Assembly (NCBI GenBank): GCA_020353515.1
Contig: CP070695.1
Span: 569,622 to 633,621 of the forward strand
Direction of reading: 5' to 3'
Length of the DNA: 64,000 nucleotides
Source: Candidatus Heimdallarchaeota archaeon
Lineage (GTDB): Archaea; Asgardarchaeota; Heimdallarchaeia; Hodarchaeales; Hodarchaeaceae
The notes under the pieces are model-generated. The model had not been told where the DNA came from, made no database searches, and was given only the letters and a program-made list of their open reading frames with translations. The position numbers and the translations under genes are program-made. Below, piece after piece: positions 25,027-34,232 of the stretch (the first letter of the stretch is position 1; every line of letters begins with the position of its first letter).

Positions 25027-26067
25027 TTGAAAATGATTTGGAATTTTCACATTGCCATTGAACTACTACTAGGCTTTTTAACTCTCATATTATCGGCATA
25101 CGGTGCATATGTGGCTTATAAAATCATGATAAGTCAGAATGAGGAGAATTCTCAAACTCCTGAAAAGGAAAAAGAGAATTTTTATTATTTATTAAGTATG
25201 ATTTCAGTAATATTGCTTGTATCCCGTTCTCTCAATGTTTTTTACTTTTATTATGTTCTAGTATCACTTGTTCCGATCATCCCTGGATCTATGTGCCCTT
25301 ATGGGGTATTGGATGCATCTCTCCCCTCTATTGGTTTTTTAGATCTTATAATAAAATTTATAGTTCCTTTTGCTTATGGTGCATGGTTAATCCTTGATCA
25401 TATCAATAAAAAGACACGAAAACTCGTTCTAACAGCTTTTCTATCCAAATTGTATGTGTTTGGTATGTTTCCGTTACTCTTAATTGACTCTGGTCTGGAT
25501 TGGATATATTTCTGGTTTTTGGAACCTATAGAGGTCAATTGTTGTCGTAATGTTCTTAATGAAGCCTTTAGTTATAATCCCATTCAAATCCTTGGGCCAG
25601 AGACGGCATTGATTTCGTTTCTCTTCACTATGGCCCTTTTGTTGATAATCATAATACTACAGTTATTTCAAGATCACAATCCACTTTTCTTATTTGGATC
25701 CCTTCTTCTAGCGATTCTAGCTGTCCCGTTTTTCCTAATAGCAATCCAAGAATTTATTGCTCCTGTTTGGATCACAACATCTAAGGATTTGCTTAAACAA
25801 CCTCTAGGTGAACCTCATCATTGTCCATTTTGTTTAGTAAAACGATGGTGGACAATGATCCCATATCTTTTGCTAATTTGGCTTGGTTTAGCCTCAGTAG
25901 GATGGGAGGCCATTATAAGGGGAGTTACTAAGAAAAACATTGAAATCAAGGAGGAAACCCAACCAATTCTACGTTATTTACGGTTAACAAGTTTGATTAG
26001 TCTCATCAGTGGTTTTATAATATTGAGTGGTCACTTTGCTTTCTTTATAGTGATCGATCTAATTTAA
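25027..26067 (+). CDS. Multi-pass membrane protein with Cys/His motifs
   Basis: GSMCPYG, VNCC and HHCPFC motifs; about 8 TM segments. Confidence 0.8.
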   Translation: MKMIWNFHIAIELLLGFLTLILSAYGAYVAYKIMISQNEENSQTPEKEKENFYYLLSMISVILLVSRSLNVFYFYYVLVSLVPIIPGSMCPYGVLDASLPSIGFLDLIIKFIVPFAYGAWLILDHINKKTRKLVLTAFLSKLYVFGMFPLLLIDSGLDWIYFWFLEPIEVNCCRNVLNEAFSYNPIQILGPETALISFLFTMALLLIIIILQLFQDHNPLFLFGSLLLAILAVPFFLIAIQEFIAPVWITTSKDLLKQPLGEPHHCPFCLVKRWWTMIPYLLLIWLGLASVGWEAIIRGVTKKNIEIKEETQPILRYLRLTSLISLISGFIILSGHFAFFIVIDLI

Positions 26068-26205: not shown

Positions 26206-27366
26206 ATGACCATGAATTTCGATTTACCTGAAGAATCCATGATGATGCGTGACGCAGTACGAGAGTTTGCTGAAAAGGAGATTCAACCAATAGCAGCGGA
26301 GCTAGATGAAAAAGAAGAATACTCACCAGAACTAACGAAAAGAATGGGGGATCTTGGATTAATGGGAATTACAATTCCCGAGAAATATGGTGGTTGTGGA
26401 CTTACGTACCTTTCATACATAGTGGCAGTTGAAGAACTTGCTAGAGTTGATGGTTCCCAAGCAGCAACCGTGGCAGCTCATAATTCGCTTGGAATAGGGC
26501 CAATTTATTATTTTGGGTCGGATGAACAGAAAGAGCACTATTTACCAAAGCTTACTACAGGTGAAAAAGTGTGGGGATTTGGTTTGACTGAACCAGAAGC
26601 AGGAAGTGATGCAGGGGGTACTAAAACTAAAGCAGTGCAAGATGGTAACGAGTGGCTTATCAATGGATCCAAAATTTTTATCACTAATGGATCAACTCCG
26701 GCATCGCTTGGTTCTACAGTTCAAGCAGTCACAGGTACAAGATCAGATGGACGTGGCAAAGAATATACTTGTTTCCTGGTAGATCAGGGGACTGAGGGGT
26801 TCGAAACCAGAACAATGCATAAGAAGATTTGCTGGCGCGCATCAATCACATCAGAACTTTATTTCACAGATTGTAGGGTGCCAGAAAGTCAAATGCTTGG
26901 TTCTCGTGGAGAAGGTTTTTATCAGATGCTAGATACTCTTGATAAAGGAAGACTATCTATTGGCGCTATGGGATTAGGTTGTGCTCAAGGTGCTTTTGAA
27001 CTCGCACTAGAATATGCTAAACAGAGAAAGGCTTTTGGTCGGCCTATAGCAAAATTTCAAGCAAATGCATTCAAACTAGCTGATATGGCAGTAGAAATTG
27101 AGGCTGCACGAAACCTCCTCTATAAAGCAACGTGGCTTTTTGATCAAGGTAGAGATGAATATAAAACTTTAGCTGCAATGGCAAAACTGTATTGCTCTGA
27201 GGTTTCCAAAAGAGTCGTTCACCAAGCAGTCCAGCTGCATGGTGGATACGGGTTGATGAAAGAATATCCTGTTGAACGTTTCTATCGAGACCAAAGATTA
27301 CTAGAAATCGGAGAAGGAACCAGCGAAATTCAACGCCTTGTTATAGCCAGAAAGCTGGGTTGTTAG
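26206..27366 (+). CDS. Acyl-CoA dehydrogenase
   Basis: FGLTEPEAGSDA, NGSKIFITNG, AVQLHGGYG and EIGEGTSEIQR motifs; AGGTGA SD. Confidence 0.96.
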   Translation: MTMNFDLPEESMMMRDAVREFAEKEIQPIAAELDEKEEYSPELTKRMGDLGLMGITIPEKYGGCGLTYLSYIVAVEELARVDGSQAATVAAHNSLGIGPIYYFGSDEQKEHYLPKLTTGEKVWGFGLTEPEAGSDAGGTKTKAVQDGNEWLINGSKIFITNGSTPASLGSTVQAVTGTRSDGRGKEYTCFLVDQGTEGFETRTMHKKICWRASITSELYFTDCRVPESQMLGSRGEGFYQMLDTLDKGRLSIGAMGLGCAQGAFELALEYAKQRKAFGRPIAKFQANAFKLADMAVEIEAARNLLYKATWLFDQGRDEYKTLAAMAKLYCSEVSKRVVHQAVQLHGGYGLMKEYPVERFYRDQRLLEIGEGTSEIQRLVIARKLGC

Positions 27367-27377
27367 CAACATATTCT

Positions 27378-27899
27378 TTATAGAGGATTAATTTCCTTTA
27401 ACATGATGAAAAAATCCATCACTTCCCCCCACTTAATGGATTCACTACTCGGAGGTTTTTCTAAAGAATATCGAATGTAAGCTACTTGAGCAAAATGATG
27501 GATTGCATGTAAGGAGGTTCTTTCAACCATCCAAGCAAGGGTTCCTGGTTTTTGAAGATTATCTTCCTTAAATGCTGGTTTTCTAGGAATAATTTCATCT
27601 TTAGCTGCAATATCGATTAATCCAGTAATGTGTACTTCAAGTTGTTTGTAACGATCCATTATTTCTGTAAAAGAAGCCTCTTTGAAAAGATAATCGAAAG
27701 TATCATCACCTAGTGTCTTAAGCCAGTAAACCTCTGCATTAACGATATGTCGAAGATAACTTTGAATTGTCCTTGCTCTTGTTCCTTCAGGACGCCATGT
27801 TAATTCATCCAAAGTCAAGCCTTCAAGCTGACGATATCCATAGGTTCTGATAATCTGAACTAGTTCCTTCAATCGCTGTTGATAAGTAGTGTTTTCCAT
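27378..27899 (-). CDS. DinB/DUF664 family protein
   Basis: ELTWRP..TIQSYLRHIVNAEVYW and LHAIHHFAQVAYIR; start placed at MENTT. Confidence 0.85.
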   Translation of the reverse strand: MENTTYQQRLKELVQIIRTYGYRQLEGLTLDELTWRPEGTRARTIQSYLRHIVNAEVYWLKTLGDDTFDYLFKEASFTEIMDRYKQLEVHITGLIDIAAKDEIIPRKPAFKEDNLQKPGTLAWMVERTSLHAIHHFAQVAYIRYSLEKPPSSESIKWGEVMDFFIMLKEINPL

Positions 27900-27985
27900 A
27901 GAGATCACAGATTCTGGAATATTCTTCCAATTGGTAAAGCTTAGAATGAATCTGCATTGATCAAACAATTTATTAATATTCTACT

Positions 27986-28193: not shown

Positions 28194-28880
28194 TCAGTCA
28201 TGTATCTTCACTGTTCCATCGCTTAACTTAATTTCGTTTTCAACTACCTCTAAGATTTGAGGATCGTGAGAAGCTATGATTACTGTTAAAGTACGAGTTT
28301 TTTGTAACTCTAATATTAATTGTAGGAATTCATCTGTCAGTTTTGAGTCAATATTACTAGAAGGCTCATCTGCAATCAAGATAGGGGGATTGTTGACTAA
28401 AGCTCTTGCAAGACATACACGTTGTGCTTCTCCTCCTGATAATTCTTTAACGCGAAATCTGAGCCTACTTTCTAAATCTAATTGTTTTAAAACTTTTATT
28501 GCCTGGGAATTAGCATCTTTATGTGAAATATCTTGAGAAAGTAATGGAATGCACACATTTTCAAGAGCTGTAAAGTGAGGTAAGAGATATTGATTTTGAA
28601 ATATAAAACCGAACTTTTCACGACGGATCTTTGTTAAAACGATTTCTGAAAGATCATTCATTTGTTCTCCCTCGATTAGAACATGACCCCGAGATGGAGG
28701 TGTTAATAAACCTATTAAAGCCAGAAGTGTAGATTTCCCACTTCCAGAAGGTCCTGTAATACAAGTTATTTTTCCTAGTGGAATTTGAATTGAGACATTA
28801 TGAATCGCATTAACTTGTTGATGTATTGCACGATAGATTTTCCAAAGATTCTGAGTCTCAATAACTGTTTCTGTATCCAT
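28194..28880 (-). CDS. ABC ATP-binding protein, LolD/MacB family
   Basis: GPSGSGKST, FGFIFQ, LSGGEAQR, ADEPSSNID and SHD motifs. Confidence 0.93.
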   Translation of the reverse strand: MDTETVIETQNLWKIYRAIHQQVNAIHNVSIQIPLGKITCITGPSGSGKSTLLALIGLLTPPSRGHVLIEGEQMNDLSEIVLTKIRREKFGFIFQNQYLLPHFTALENVCIPLLSQDISHKDANSQAIKVLKQLDLESRLRFRVKELSGGEAQRVCLARALVNNPPILIADEPSSNIDSKLTDEFLQLILELQKTRTLTVIIASHDPQILEVVENEIKLSDGTVKIHD

Positions 28881-30089
28881 TCAGAGCCCCCTAAGTACTT
28901 CATCCGGTTCAGTAACAGCGTTCTTCCAAGCTGGGACTACCGTACTGATAACTAAAGGCAGAATACCAATTCCATAAGCTACTAGCAAACTATCAAAAGT
29001 GATTCTAACTGGCAAAATAAAAGGTGGGAATAATACAGACCATCCTAACATGAAATCTGATAGGATTGGGGCTCCTAAATAAAAATCATAGATAATTGCA
29101 GCAAAAATTCCTAAAGTTGAAGCAAAAAAACCAGTCAATGTAAATTCAATCATTCTAATTTCAAGTACATCGAATGTAGTAAAACCAAGAGTCTTTAATA
29201 GACCAATTTCTTTTCGTGCTTCGAAAGAAATCGCAGAAGAGATAGTAAAGGCAAATAATAGAGAACCTATTAACATTACAGTCCAAATAATGGTAAAGTA
29301 CCCTGCTCTTTCATTCGTTGTATGATGAATCAGATTTCTTAAAGTGAACTTATCGATAACTTTCACATCATCAATTGTATCACTAATTTTTTGAATTACC
29401 TCTGAAGAATCATCATTTAAGTTTGGATTAAGCCACACAGCTAAATCTGTAGAATAATTTTGATTTATATTGAAGAATTCTCGACTAAACTGGATATCTG
29501 TTAAGATCAAATCATGAGTATATATTTTTGAAGCAACAGAAAAAATCCCTATTACTTCCATCTCATATTCCTGATTATCAATGTCAGTCAATAATAAGAT
29601 TGACCCAACTTGAGCGTGAGAAGCTTCAGCTACACCAGAACCAATCACACACACAGGAATCGTCTCATTTTCTTCTAAAAATCGTCCAGAACGAATTTGG
29701 AATTCTAACTCTGGTGTATCAATAGGATATTTTCCTATTTCAATACCCATCATTGTGTAGAGGTTATTGGCGGCTGATAGATATCCCCATACCCTAGGTG
29801 ACACGAGATGAACTCCTTGAATTTCCTCGATCTCTTGAATCTTCAAATTTTTTACTGGAACTACTCTCCCAGCATTATATCCTTGTATTAAAACGTCAGG
29901 AGCAAATGTCAATGATGCATCAACGTCTTGATTAATTCCTTCTCGTATAAAATCAACAGCAGAGAGTATACCAACGATAATACTGATAGAAATTAAAATA
30001 CTGATAGTCCTCCCTCGATAAACCTGAATATTTCGAAGTGCATACCAACAGAGGTTAATCTGTTTTTTCAATCCCATTATTAAATTCAC
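28881..30089 (-). CDS. ABC permease, FtsX/LolC/MacB family
   Basis: One TM, a large extracellular loop, then three TMs; RKEIGLLKTLGF and PAWKNAVTEP. Confidence 0.92.
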   Translation of the reverse strand: MNLIMGLKKQINLCWYALRNIQVYRGRTISILISISIIVGILSAVDFIREGINQDVDASLTFAPDVLIQGYNAGRVVPVKNLKIQEIEEIQGVHLVSPRVWGYLSAANNLYTMMGIEIGKYPIDTPELEFQIRSGRFLEENETIPVCVIGSGVAEASHAQVGSILLLTDIDNQEYEMEVIGIFSVASKIYTHDLILTDIQFSREFFNINQNYSTDLAVWLNPNLNDDSSEVIQKISDTIDDVKVIDKFTLRNLIHHTTNERAGYFTIIWTVMLIGSLLFAFTISSAISFEARKEIGLLKTLGFTTFDVLEIRMIEFTLTGFFASTLGIFAAIIYDFYLGAPILSDFMLGWSVLFPPFILPVRITFDSLLVAYGIGILPLVISTVVPAWKNAVTEPDEVLRGL

Positions 30090-30525
30090 TCCTCTTCTGT
30101 TTCCAGTATTGTTTGAAGACCCAAAAAAGGCAAGATAATACCATGATTATAATAAATAGTGAAAAGACCATTTGTTGGATTTGAAGTACCGTCAAAGTTT
30201 TAGCTGAAGGATTTTGAACATCAACCCACTGTGGAATCCTCTGGCCATTAACCTTTCCTTGAGAAATTTCTGGAGCTGTGAGTAGGATTGGAGAAAAATA
30301 GAAAGAGTAACCTCCTGGAAGGTCTGAAAGAATAGAATAAAATACTTCTAAAGCTGGATTCCGAGTAGAGACCGAGTCATGAGTTATTGAGGGTGAGAAA
30401 CCCCCTAGAAAAGGTATAACACTTCCAACAAAATGATGTGAGAAAATAAAATCAGAAAGAAAGATGTGCATCAAAATGAAAACAAACATGCAACTTATTA
30501 GTGCCAAAAAGCCTTTTATCCTCAT
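30055..30525 (-). CDS. Hypothetical membrane protein (N- and C-terminal TM)
   Basis: Sits between the ECF-S and permease genes on the same strand; loop STRNPALEVFYSILSDLPGG. Confidence 0.65.
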   Translation of the reverse strand: MRIKGFLALISCMFVFILMHIFLSDFIFSHHFVGSVIPFLGGFSPSITHDSVSTRNPALEVFYSILSDLPGGYSFYFSPILLTAPEISQGKVNGQRIPQWVDVQNPSAKTLTVLQIQQMVFSLFIIIMVLSCLFWVFKQYWKQKRSEFNNGIEKTD

Positions 30526-30554
30526 AATTCCAACTACACTTAGACCTGTTGCTT

Positions 30555-31205
30555 TTACCTAGTCTTGATTTTGGAATCCCAGATTTTTAATCCTTCAATC
30601 ATCAAGATTTCGCCAATTCTGGCGATAACAGGTGCAAACAATAACAGTGAAATTAAGATTATCGAGAAATTTGGAGCAAAATTATAGAGAAGTGTTCCTT
30701 CTAGACTTTGTCCTGCAATTAGCATTAATCCAATTAGGTATAGGAACGTCATTGAAAGATAACCAATAAATGAAAATAAGATTAAGAGAGCGATTTTATT
30801 TCCGTCAGCAAATCCGTCTTCCTTCATATAGCGGGGAATACCTATAATAAAACCTAGTATTCCAAATGCGAAATTAACACTACCAAATGCTACAATTTGT
30901 TGAGTATAAAGGAAATCCGCACCTAAAGAACCAACAAAGCCTACAAGGAATCCTGCAAGTGGACCACAATAAGCTGCACTAATACTAATAACCACGAGCC
31001 CGAGATCAATTCCTCCTTTTACAGGGATAACTGTAATACCTAGATCTAGCCCAGTAAATGTATATTCAGGTAATTTGACTGAAGAGAAGACGAAGTAGGC
31101 TAAAATTCCAATCAAAGCCCCTCCAAACGTCCACTTTGATATTAATGTAGATTCTAATCGCAATAAATACAATAATTGTGTCTTTAAGTCTTTCTTTTCT
31201 TCCAT
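30555..31205 (-). CDS. ECF transporter S component
   Basis: IDLGLVVISISAAYCGPLAGFLVGFVGSLGAD signature; start MEEKK after a GAGGTG SD. Confidence 0.82.
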   Translation of the reverse strand: MEEKKDLKTQLLYLLRLESTLISKWTFGGALIGILAYFVFSSVKLPEYTFTGLDLGITVIPVKGGIDLGLVVISISAAYCGPLAGFLVGFVGSLGADFLYTQQIVAFGSVNFAFGILGFIIGIPRYMKEDGFADGNKIALLILFSFIGYLSMTFLYLIGLMLIAGQSLEGTLLYNFAPNFSIILISLLLFAPVIARIGEILMIEGLKIWDSKIKTR

Positions 31206-31216
31206 TTCGCCACACC

Positions 31217-32875
31217 TCAAATTATCACAAAGGAATAAGTTCCAGGTGGTAGTGTTAGAACCATCTGGTCGCCATTCTGCTCCCATTTAGCTTCTTCATA
31301 TGCCCCAGATTTAGTATAAACCCCCTGTACATCTGGAAATTGATAAAAAGTGAGTATGGTCTCCTTATTTGCTTCTACTGTTAAAATGAATGCGTCCTCT
31401 TCTTCATCAAAGTAAGCTTGGTAGATAAACAAGCCATCAAGAGTGGACTCTTTAGAAATAAATGGAGTAGTTGTATAAAAAGAATCATCTCTTGGATCCA
31501 TTAAATTTGTCAATGTGGAATCTGCATGACACCACGCATATGCAAAATTTAAGATTGGATTCATAAACGGCCCAATATCACCCAAAGCACCTGTATCAAA
31601 TCCATACTTATATCCATCCCATTCACCTGGGAATGGGCCATAAAACCAATTTTCTAATTTTCTGAACAACTCTAAATCATTCATCTCACGAGAACAGAAA
31701 TAGGAAAATAGATTTCCAATTAAATCAAACACAGTAAATGAGTTAGGGCGATGATACGAATGGGGTGCATAAGCTTGATCATTAGGAGAATAATGCACAA
31801 ATTGTTTCTTCCAATTTCGATAATAGGTGTCTGCAATCTCTGTTTTACCAAATCCGTTATAAAATGCAATTGCCCAAGAGGAGCCATAGTTTGCTACCCC
31901 TGGAATATTTTCAGATTCAAGCCCTGGTTCTAATGCTGGCCCTGGAATTTCTCCTAAGACTTCGAACTGGTGTTGTTCTGTGTACGGTTCTGCAATATAG
32001 TATCCATCAATCTGAATACCATTTGCATCAGTCATATGTTCTCTCCACCAATCAATTCCTGGTTCAATTGATTGCCTGTAATTAGTCCCATGAAGCTTGT
32101 CATATAAGGTCATTGCATAGAATGGAATACTGTTGCATTGAACAAAGACTATATATGGTTCGCATGAAATCAATCCTGTTCCCCACAATCCAAGAGGACG
32201 GCCTGATCCGTCTACTGAAGTTTTATTATCCCAAGTTGTAGTAGCGGTAAGAGAATTGTTCCAATCATCCATAAACCACTTAATTTCAGCATTATAAGAA
32301 GATTCACGGAAAATATTGTAGTAAAGAAGCTCCATCAGAGCATAATGACCAGTCCACATAATATTCGTAGGCCCTCGAAAGTCGTTACCTAAGGCCTCAT
32401 AACGATCATCAGCAAATCCTGGCAAAATCCACTCAAAATCCTCCATAGCAGATGAATTCATCATAAGGATGAGCTTTTGAAATAATTTCTTGTAATAATC
32501 CGTCCTGTAACTAGGAGTACTATCCACAATTTGGGCCATTCCATATGTTGTAAAGGCAATAAAATATTGAGTAAGAATATTTGGTAGAATACTCAAATCA
32601 TTAATACTTTCATTGGAAAAATCATCGACAGCATACATTTCTCGTAAGCTGTTCCATAGACCGATAACTCGACGGTCTATAACGGGATAATCACTAAGGT
32701 TAAATGTTCTTTCATCTGGAACAGTAATCTTATTTAATTTGGGAGTAGATGGCTCAACTGGGCTTAATAAAAGTACAGAACTAGAGAGAATAAGCACAAT
32801 TATGAACAAAGTAACGAAAATTTTTGATTGAAGAAGATAATTAACGGCTTTAGAACTCATAATTTCACCTTTCAA
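31217..32875 (-). CDS. Linalool dehydratase/isomerase (LinD/Lis) family protein with N-terminal signal/TM
   Basis: YFIAFTTYGMA, NIMWTGHYALM, CEPYIVFVQCNS, LYDKLHGTNY, YGSSWAIAF and SREMNDLELF match LinD motifs. Confidence 0.85.
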   Translation of the reverse strand: MKGEIMSSKAVNYLLQSKIFVTLFIIVLILSSSVLLLSPVEPSTPKLNKITVPDERTFNLSDYPVIDRRVIGLWNSLREMYAVDDFSNESINDLSILPNILTQYFIAFTTYGMAQIVDSTPSYRTDYYKKLFQKLILMMNSSAMEDFEWILPGFADDRYEALGNDFRGPTNIMWTGHYALMELLYYNIFRESSYNAEIKWFMDDWNNSLTATTTWDNKTSVDGSGRPLGLWGTGLISCEPYIVFVQCNSIPFYAMTLYDKLHGTNYRQSIEPGIDWWREHMTDANGIQIDGYYIAEPYTEQHQFEVLGEIPGPALEPGLESENIPGVANYGSSWAIAFYNGFGKTEIADTYYRNWKKQFVHYSPNDQAYAPHSYHRPNSFTVFDLIGNLFSYFCSREMNDLELFRKLENWFYGPFPGEWDGYKYGFDTGALGDIGPFMNPILNFAYAWCHADSTLTNLMDPRDDSFYTTTPFISKESTLDGLFIYQAYFDEEEDAFILTVEANKETILTFYQFPDVQGVYTKSGAYEEAKWEQNGDQMVLTLPPGTYSFVII

Positions 32876-33084
32876 CTATAATTATTCACATTTTGGGAAA
32901 AGGAAGAGAATTAGATATGAGATGAGAGAAATTTGATTATCATTTTAGACTGGTTTTGTTTTTTAAATATTGTTAGCAACGAATACATCTTACTTTACTT
33001 CTTAACTATATTGTCAGACACTAATGGATTTATCCTCAAAGCGATAAAATTTTAATATATATTTTTTTGATTCGCTTTATCTTT

Positions 33085-33098
33085 TTCACGATCGTGAA
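33085..33098. promoter_or_regulatory. Perfect 14-bp palindrome, candidate operator
   Basis: TTCACGATCGTGAA, about 57 bp upstream of the Fe-S gene in the divergent promoter region shared with the LinD-like gene. Confidence 0.45.
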
Positions 33099-33155
33099 CC
33101 AAGACATAATAAACTTAGACAATTTAATGTTATAAAAACAATGTAGGTAAGAATA

Positions 33156-34232
33156 ATGACAGAACAAGATGTATTCAATCGCCTCCGAGAGCACCTTCAT
33201 AATCTACCAGTGGGTTTTCCCGAGACAGAATCAGGAGTTGAGATACGAATCCTTAAACGACTTTTCACAGAAGAAGAAGCAGAAATGGCTATTCAACTTT
33301 CACCATATGCGGCAACCGCAGAAGAAATTGCAGAGAGGATCAGACAAGACCCAGAAGATGTAAAGTCCCTCTTGGATCAGATGAGTACGAAAGGATTAAT
33401 TTTTAACTCCCGAAAGGGGGGAATCTCGACTTATCGAGCAGCATGGTTCATTGTTGGAATATTTGAGTATCAGGTTAATCGTTTGACTAAAGAATTTGCT
33501 GAGGACTTTGATCAGTACTTGGATGATGGATTACGGGATGAACTTCTTTCTTATGACACACACCAGCTTCGAGTAGTGCCTGTCAACCAAGCGATTGACG
33601 CAGTTAAACGAGTGGCTTCTTATGATGACGCACGTGAGTTAATTAGACAACAAAGTAAAATTTCAATACAAAATTGCATTTGTAGACAGAAAAAAGATCT
33701 ACAAGGGGCCCCATGTTCCCGGCACGAGGAGAGGGAAGTCTGTCTAGCTTTCTCAAGTGGTGCCTATTACTTCCTAGAGCATGGCTTGGGTCGAGAAATT
33801 TCCCAGGAAGAAGCACTAGAGCGTTTAGATTTTGCAGAGCAAAAAGGCCTTGTTATGAGCCCTGGTAACGCCCAAAAAACGTTTGTCATGTGCCTCTGTT
33901 GTGGTGACTGCTGTGAATATTTAGGAGTTCTGAAAACATACTCTAAACCCAGTTCATTAGTGAATAGTAATTACTACGCGCAAGTGGATATCGACTTGTG
34001 CTCAGGATGTGAAACCTGCGTAGACCGCTGTCAGATGGAGGCAATCACTATTGTAGATGATATTTCTACGATTAATCTCGATCGGTGTATCGGTTGTGGA
34101 CTCTGTGTTACTAGCTGTCCAGAGGAAGCAATGTCACTTGAAGTCAAGACTGAACATGTAGTTCCTCCAGCGGATATTGGTGACCTTTATATGAAAATTG
34201 GCAAAGAAAGACTCCAGAAGCATTCCTCATAA
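33156..34232 (+). CDS. 4Fe-4S dicluster protein with N-terminal wHTH-like region
   Basis: GFPETESGVEIRILKRLF, CICR and CLCCGDCC motifs; two CxxCxxCxxxC ferredoxin motifs. Confidence 0.9.
   Translation: MTEQDVFNRLREHLHNLPVGFPETESGVEIRILKRLFTEEEAEMAIQLSPYAATAEEIAERIRQDPEDVKSLLDQMSTKGLIFNSRKGGISTYRAAWFIVGIFEYQVNRLTKEFAEDFDQYLDDGLRDELLSYDTHQLRVVPVNQAIDAVKRVASYDDARELIRQQSKISIQNCICRQKKDLQGAPCSRHEEREVCLAFSSGAYYFLEHGLGREISQEEALERLDFAEQKGLVMSPGNAQKTFVMCLCCGDCCEYLGVLKTYSKPSSLVNSNYYAQVDIDLCSGCETCVDRCQMEAITIVDDISTINLDRCIGCGLCVTSCPEEAMSLEVKTEHVVPPADIGDLYMKIGKERLQKHSS

Follow-up and report, generated by a model that had tools for sequence, protein, structure and literature searches.

What is a relative of a bacterial terpene alcohol dehydratase doing, apparently on the outside of an archaeal cell, and which of its neighboring genes does it work with? 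The question is raised by a 64,000-nucleotide stretch, here called the window, from Candidatus Heimdallarchaeota archaeon (GenBank assembly GCA_020353515.1, contig CP070695.1, positions 569,622 to 633,621). Its minus strand between 28194 and 32875 holds five same-strand open reading frames (ORFs), at 31217..32875, 30555..31286, 30055..30525, 28881..30089, and 28194..28880. The first encodes a homolog of linalool dehydratase/isomerase (LinD) and the second a membrane protein with the fold of an energy-coupling factor (ECF) S component. LinD-type enzymes are cofactor-free alkene hydratases, and to our knowledge the two that have been studied so far both come from denitrifying bacteria growing on monoterpenes. 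The first-pass annotation, made from the letters alone, took the five genes for an apparent operon in which a secreted LinD homolog and an ECF S component act together with a LolCDE-type ATP-binding cassette (ABC) system in the processing and uptake of isoprenoid alcohols. The core feature is instead a two-gene unit, formed by the following genes:

31217 to 32860, minus strand: gene for the LinD-like enzyme, 547 amino acids from the ATG at 32860 (the longest ORF, from the TTG at 32875, encodes 552 amino acids)
30555 to 31205, minus strand: gene for the S-like partner, a six-helix membrane protein of 216 amino acids with an ECF S-component fold

The first gene encodes a genuine member of the LinD family with its catalytic core intact. 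The protein scores 64.5 bits against the Pfam model Ldi (PF18566; cut-off, 26.1), matches the PDB entry for LinD of Castellaniella defragrans as a single sequence (E value, 3e-13), and, when represented by a profile of 50 relatives, finds the LinD chains of the PDB with an E value of 1.2e-60 over 380 positions; identity to LinD is ~20%. An AlphaFold 2 model built on the alignment of these 50 relatives (predicted local distance difference test [pLDDT] score, 93.4) consists of an N-terminal transmembrane (TM) helix (residues 3 to 37), an (alpha/alpha)6 barrel (~62 to 467), and a C-terminal beta-sandwich (472 to 551), the last of which has no match in Pfam. The barrel superimposes on the LinD structure over 335 residues with a Z score of 38.8 and a root mean square deviation (rmsd) of 2.1 Å, the next fold lying at a Z score of 22 (GH105 and GH76), and Foldseek aligns the model to LinD with an E value of 2e-14 and TM scores of 0.72 to 0.79. 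The LinD-like motifs that the first-pass annotation had quoted are present in the 552-amino-acid ORF, and the model contains both the N-terminal TM segment and the beta-rich C-terminal domain that it had described, as well as the barrel that it had expected. Across the 50 sequences, Y104, F108, W149, N171, M173, H177, C238, C247, N248, W334, and D400 are invariant, while E239, the equivalent of LinD E172, is kept in 94%. HMMER alignments place Y104, M173, H177, C238, and C247 opposite LinD Y66, M125, H129, C171, and C180, and the NIM..GH and CEP..QCNS motifs are common to both proteins; the two active-site cysteines, histidine, and methionine had been correctly recognized as retained, and the tyrosine is retained as well. 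In LinD, the two cysteines belong to a proposed acid/base or covalent mechanism, the substrate channel is capped by a separate, essential disulfide, and the active site sits between the subunits of a pentamer (PMC6013536). The family is rare, with only 85 representatives among 1.8 billion proteins. Its gene in the window most likely starts at ATG 32860, behind a GGTGA, rather than at TTG 32875, since the database copy of the protein (P0001) is 547 amino acids long and the same-genus orthologs begin with MSSK or MSAS; residue numbers given here follow the 552-amino-acid ORF.

The two characterized relatives differ from the archaeal enzyme in how they stand to the membrane, among other features. 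LinD (Ldi) of C. defragrans 65Phen (PF18566; PDB 5G1U, 5HLR, and 5I3T) shares with it the barrel, the catalytic residues, and an extracytoplasmic placement, but LinD is soluble and periplasmic, whereas the archaeal protein appears to be tethered by an N-terminal helix that looks uncleaved. The archaeal protein also has the extra C-terminal beta-sandwich, no equivalent of the capping disulfide, and a dedicated membrane partner, which LinD is without. In the model, its catalytic domain is predicted to lie outside the cell, held there by the N-terminal membrane anchor. The linalool isomerase Lis of Thauera linaloolentis 47Lol is likewise anchored in the membrane and belongs to this enzyme family; it has isomerase but no dehydratase activity and must be activated by a reductant (PMC4791888). 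In Lis, four TM helices are fused at the N terminus and the domain is predicted to be cytosolic, in contrast to the single anchor helix, predicted outward domain, and separate six-helix partner of the archaeal enzyme. We considered and rejected the N-terminal membrane parts of two Lis-like long forms (P0174 and P0198) and the C-terminal extension of P0149 as fused versions of the S-like partner, on hhalign probabilities of <1% from a comparison of a profile with single sequences, in which a distant relationship could be missed.

The partner gene follows at once. The stop codon of the LinD-like gene (TGA, 31219-31217) is separated by 11 nucleotides from the partner's ATG at 31205, and a GAGGTG overlaps the stop. 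The first-pass annotation had called the product of this gene an ECF S component, and structure comparison bears out that fold. A model of the partner (pLDDT, 88) superimposes on FolT with a Z score of 16.0 and an rmsd of 2.6 Å over 165 of 169 residues, and its top 22 structural matches are all ECF S components or BtuM, with S components in the Z range of 12 to 16. In sequence comparisons, the partner scores 28.4 to 28.9 bits against PF07155, a riboflavin-type model with a cut-off of 26.7, and 19 of its 21 orthologs match that model at an E value of ≤0.1; a search of the S-like profile against PDB sequences returned no match, so that the fold was found by structure comparison only. With FolT, ThiT, RibU, BioY, and PanT and the solitary BioY and BtuM, the partner shares the six-helix fold, PF07155, and, in most members of its family, a small-xxx-small motif in helix 1. 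Unlike ECF S components, it has no linked EcfT or EcfA at any locus, and the strict form of the motif, AxxxA, which marks S components that dock on EcfT (PMC11109136), is rare: 5 of 21 orthologs have it, 18 of 21 have small-xxx-small, and the window protein has GxxxG. Few polar residues are conserved in the family, and most of the invariant positions are glycine or proline.

What ties the two genes together is their conservation as a pair. Among 400 Asgard genomes, 54 encode the LinD-like protein (4 of the 22 species of its own genus, all 3 of one small family, and 46 of 89 of the Thor-type family), and in 19 of 20 loci fetched from these genomes the partner lies directly after it on the same strand, mostly 9 to 15 nucleotides away. 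When all distinct related loci are counted, from Heimdall-type, Njord/Atabeya, Thor, and Methanomethylicia genomes, the two are adjacent in 23 of 24, a synteny that the first-pass annotation had suggested looking for. Adjacency extends to a third lineage (L027) and to the most basal branch of the 540-amino-acid clade (P0126; L028), where the neighbor itself matches PF07155. The families are also alike in size, with 177 LinD-like and 125 S-like protein clusters from the same kinds of organisms, and the S-like family is confined to organisms that have the LinD-like enzyme. Two Methanomethylicaceae contigs (L025 and L026, 6001-8232) carry the pair with an enzyme 56% and a partner 39% identical to those of the window. 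In a quick tree, whose branching order is provisional, the Methanomethylicia sequences fall beside Njord/Atabeya, within the Heimdall-type subclade, a placement that suggests a transfer of the two-gene unit between archaeal phyla. Farther out, a distant relative of 598 amino acids (P0131) has no S-like neighbor, its context being SnoaL_2 and a GDSL lipase, and the lone contig of P0139, from a distant group of 580 to 600 amino acids, is too short for its context to be judged. Since the pair is this patchy within both the genus and the Asgard genomes, its spread favors an accessory scavenging role over one in core lipid synthesis.

Some members of the family have unusual gene structures. One Thor-type locus (L015; G365:C16, 7038-12962) holds two LinD-like and S-like pairs in tandem on one strand, as if the entire two-gene unit had been duplicated. 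In another (L034; G381:C373, ~954-2564), the Thor-type LinD-like gene has an in-frame TAA near residue 317, which is not the position of a catalytic cysteine; the copy is probably either broken or misassembled. Selenocysteine at the catalytic cysteine of some Thor LinD-like matches was considered and rejected, as the in-frame stops in question, apart from this TAA, lie upstream of the true start.

The two proteins are also predicted to bind one another. Complex prediction for enzyme and partner gave a score of 0.66 (0.68, 0.66, and 0.65 in three runs) compared with 0.01 for the best control, a result above the pass mark; 58 of 80 solved complexes and 2 of 110 mismatched pairs reach that mark, counts that hold only roughly here because custom alignments were used. 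The runs share at least 95% of their contacts, and the pLDDT of the partner in the complex is 86. One predicted interface runs inside the membrane, where the anchor helix (residues 16 to 38) lies along TM5 and TM6 of the partner (132 to 139 and 185 to 196). In the other, segments of the barrel (361 to 369, 377 to 380, 402 to 416, and 429 to 433) rest on the partner's outer loops (46 to 65, 97 to 110, and 160 to 178). Docked in this way, the enzyme is predicted to have its catalytic domain on the exterior of the cell, directly above the side on which S components bind their cargo. Database searches returned no solved complex of a LinD family member with an S-component-fold protein, and the two accounts of S components consulted (PMC6072759, PMC11109136) describe none with an extracytoplasmic enzyme partner.

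How might such a pair function? The reading we lean toward, with a little less than even confidence, is a two-subunit surface machine in which a LinD-type (de)hydratase/isomerase acts on a probably isoprenoid substrate while docked on a dedicated S-fold protein that takes over or provides the lipid-like molecule. The enzyme would most likely catalyze a LinD-type acid/base (de)hydration and/or a 1,3-hydroxyl shift on an alpha-methylallyl alcohol or 1,3-diene motif. Its substrate is probably an isoprenoid, and, by analogy with geraniol, linalool, and myrcene, the candidates would be geranylgeraniol/geranyllinalool or phytol/isophytol/neophytadiene. With its anchor helix packed on TM5/TM6, the enzyme would cover with its barrel the outer loops L1, L3, and L5, which should correspond to the loops that frame the binding pocket in known S components. 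The partner would then take the product from the enzyme, or hand it substrate, and carry the molecule across the membrane. Because the equilibrium of LinD favors dehydration (PMC6013536) and the partner would remove the primary alcohol, binding of the product could pull an otherwise unfavorable reaction in the hydration direction, which would give the physical coupling a reason. The isoprenoid-alcohol substrate and the lipid-salvage role of the first-pass annotation are putative.

Several observations weigh against such a machine. On the side of the enzyme, the capping disulfide of LinD has no equivalent, as the sole cysteines of the archaeal protein are residues 238, 247, 394, and 449, and in the profile alignment the cysteines in the N-terminal part of LinD fall opposite residues other than cysteine. 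The same alignment sets the N-terminal active-site residues of LinD, D39′ (from the neighboring subunit) and Y45, opposite nonidentical residues in a poorly aligned stretch. The entrance to the active site may be built differently from that of LinD. On the side of the partner, the window protein's own match to PF07155 is marginal (28.4 bits), and strict AxxxA is scarce in the family, the window protein having GxxxG in its place. The complex score expresses how confident the model is and does not measure binding, and the predicted interface is no better conserved than the rest of the proteins except in the anchor helix (0.52 compared with 0.32), a finding that is neutral in itself. Finally, the neighborhood contains no genes for a prenol kinase or for terpene oxidation, and hydrophobic alcohols may need no transporter at all.

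Transport would also need a source of energy. No EcfT gene was found within ~8 kb of the pair at any of 24 loci, and the window genome has only two, both far from the pair and each in an operon with its own S component. One of these operons reads CbiM-PDGLE-CbiQ-ATPase, beside a gene for a NikR-like regulator (G000:C1:4229500-4232200, L029), and the other PF09819 (YkoE-like)-double ATPase-EcfT, beside ThyX (G000:C1:3427600-3431300, L030). EcfT/CbiQ is present in 393 of the 400 Asgard genomes, and being nearly universal, its presence cannot separate the readings. Both BioY and BtuM have been described as solitary S components (PMC11109136, PMC6072759). Given that no ECF module is linked to the pair and that the two in the genome have S components of their own, the partner may work alone, as these proteins do, may borrow an ECF module, or may not transport. 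The earlier proposal of an extracellular enzyme with ECF-S uptake stands as to a predicted outward-facing enzyme and a linked S-fold partner that is predicted to bind it, but no energizing ECF module is linked to the pair.

Whatever the chemistry, the LinD catalytic core now extends to Asgard and Methanomethylicia archaea, organisms whose own membranes are isoprenoid, and is tied there to a dedicated partner with an S-component fold. Should the two proteins prove to bind and channel a prenol, they would reveal how archaea of sediments scavenge isoprenoids and would add to the roles of the S-component fold, which otherwise lie in vitamin uptake, MreD, and sensor kinases; biocatalysis would also gain new hydratases. 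The small size of the pair and its ease of expression make the question directly testable. The first-pass annotation knew of no described archaeal LinD, and our literature search returned no paper linking linalool dehydratase to archaea or Asgard lineages, nor one on the pair; in NCBI annotation, however, some archaeal relatives are already named linalool dehydratase/isomerase domain-containing protein.

The pair could instead belong to a complex that modifies membrane lipids, in which the S-fold protein is a scaffold or lipid-access subunit rather than a transporter and the LinD-like enzyme alters its substrate in place. An unsaturated archaeol chain, a polyprenol, or a quinone tail would be lifted to the enzyme and there be hydrated, dehydrated, or isomerized. 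The predicted complex lends itself to this account, with its long helix-helix contact in the membrane and a barrel that seals the partner's outer face, as does the lack of a linked ECF module in a genome where each of the two modules shares an operon with an S component of its own. Strict AxxxA is mostly absent from the partner family, and S-fold proteins without AxxxA, such as MreD and 5TMR kinases, are not transporters (PMC11109136). The membrane domain of a lipid-acting enzyme, Lnt, is among the structural matches of the partner at a Z score of 8 to 9, and in three lineages the neighbors of the pair include a MacB/LolC-like module, whose class counts the membrane lipoprotein extractor LolCDE among its members. 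Yet the top structural matches are genuine transport S components, well above Lnt in Z score, and the small-xxx-small motif of helix 1 is kept in most orthologs. The patchy distribution of the pair would be unusual for core lipid remodeling, and we know of no lipid of these archaea that requires such a modification. On balance, we consider a lipid-modifying complex rather unlikely.

A different possibility keeps the two-subunit machine and changes its cargo, so that the compound processed outside the cell, with its product then imported, would be an alkenol, diene, or allylic compound of another kind, such as a precursor of a cofactor or vitamin or a metabolite derived from detritus. The cargo of known S components consists of vitamins and cofactor precursors, PF07155 is itself a riboflavin-type model, and LinD accepts many non-terpene alpha-methylallyl alcohols (PMC6013536). 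The low identity to LinD and the differing N-terminal active-site elements would also leave room for another substrate. On the other hand, the whole catalytic set for terpene alcohol chemistry is invariant, the few conserved polar residues of the partner fit a greasy ligand better than a vitamin, and no cofactor-pathway genes are conserved nearby in the related loci that were fetched. We regard a non-isoprenoid substrate as unlikely.

The other three genes of the cluster encode an ABC module, to which a fourth gene, on the opposite strand, belongs by its distribution:

30055 to 30525, minus strand: TM156, 156 amino acids, hydrophobic at both ends, with no match in Pfam or NCBIfam
28881 to 30089, minus strand: permease of the MacB/FtsX type (type VII ABC) whose outer domain is MacB_PCD; the gene probably starts at ATG 30077, inside the end of TM156
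28194 to 28880, minus strand: ATPase of an ABC system, LolD/MacB/FtsE type; with the LolD model it scores 223 bits, under the equivalog cut-off of 307.75
25027 to 26067, plus strand: orf346, a polytopic membrane protein that carries Cys/His motifs and matches no family

Downstream of the LinD-like gene, the partner and TM156 are 29 nucleotides apart, TM156 and the permease gene overlap, and the permease and ATPase genes abut with a gap of 0 nucleotides. The module had been labeled LolCDE-type, but the permease, which combines MacB_PCD and FtsX domains, reaches only 57.8 bits against the LolCE model (equivalog cut-off, 362), and the LolD/FtsE-like ATPase likewise stays under its cut-off; both belong to a MacB/FtsX (type VII) system. 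Systems of this class are known to act in extrusion, extraction, or mechanotransmission rather than in uptake, and we know of no importer among them. The module shares its domains with MacB, LolCDE, and FtsEX but differs from them in traveling with two uncharacterized membrane proteins, TM156 and orf346, and in its facultative link to the pair.

The distribution of these genes sets them apart as a separate, optional module outside the core two-gene unit. At an E value of ≤1e-40, permease orthologs are present in 24 of the 43 LinD-positive genomes and missing from 19, including the single-contig genomes G002 and G004 (96 to 97% complete) and the same-genus genome G059. Where present, the permease lies within ~4 kb of the pair in 7 of 24 genomes, and in G335 and G336 it is >200 kb away. 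Within the genus, only the window genome and those of loci L003 and L004 have it, all in the five-gene order. In relatives, TM156 travels with the FtsX permease and not with the LinD pair. Similarly, orf346 stands beside the FtsX-ATPase module in all seven other loci that hold it (L003, L004, L007, L016, L018, L019, and L027; 31 to 66% identity). Its motifs are GSMCPYG, NCC, and HHCPFC, no match to it was found in Pfam, NCBIfam, or PDB sequences, and it is probably a subunit or client of the FtsX-type ABC system. The FtsX module nevertheless recurs within a few kilobases of the pair in Thor genera (L007, L016, L018, and L019, and G387 by coordinates) and in the third lineage (L027), with gene orders that differ among the three lineages. 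Such recurrent adjacency exceeds chance and makes a facultative functional tie possible. An obligatory five-gene system, in which a LolCDE-like transporter works with the LinD-like enzyme and S component in prenyl alcohol uptake, is very unlikely: one strand, gaps of ≤29 nucleotides, the same order in L003 and L004, and a more-than-chance proximity in Thor genera and L027 speak for it, but 19 LinD-positive genomes lack the permease, the two units are far apart in G335 and G336, Lol scores fall far below the equivalog cut-offs, and the class is not one generally known for import. The apparent operon described earlier thus holds for the window as five closely spaced same-strand genes, but not as a conserved unit.

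These elements can be joined in a bolder version of the surface machine, which we think unlikely as a whole. It would be a "convert-and-capture" machine that hydrates or isomerizes sedimentary isoprenoid dienes and alcohols at the cell surface, for example along neophytadiene/isophytol/phytol or geranyllinalool/geranylgeraniol, and feeds the resulting primary prenol directly to the partner for re-use in the cell's own lipids, with the MacB-type module as a powered helper where it is present. If true, no S component before it would have had an enzyme as partner, and LinD-type activity would be new to archaea.

The remaining neighbors vary among relatives. Between orf346 and the ABC genes lie a gene for an acyl-CoA dehydrogenase (26206-27366, plus strand), whose best NCBIfam match is the acryloyl-CoA reductase AcrC, under the cut-off, and a gene for a DinB-family protein (27378-27968, minus strand). 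The Thor loci contain neither; in the genus, the former is kept in loci L003 and L004 and the latter in L003 only. On the other side, an AT-rich divergent intergenic region of 280 nucleotides (32876-33155) separates the LinD-like gene from a gene on the plus strand (33156-34232) for a 358-amino-acid protein with a C-terminal 2x[4Fe-4S] ferredoxin domain. This ferredoxin-domain neighbor and orf357 are kept in one same-genus genome only (L003).

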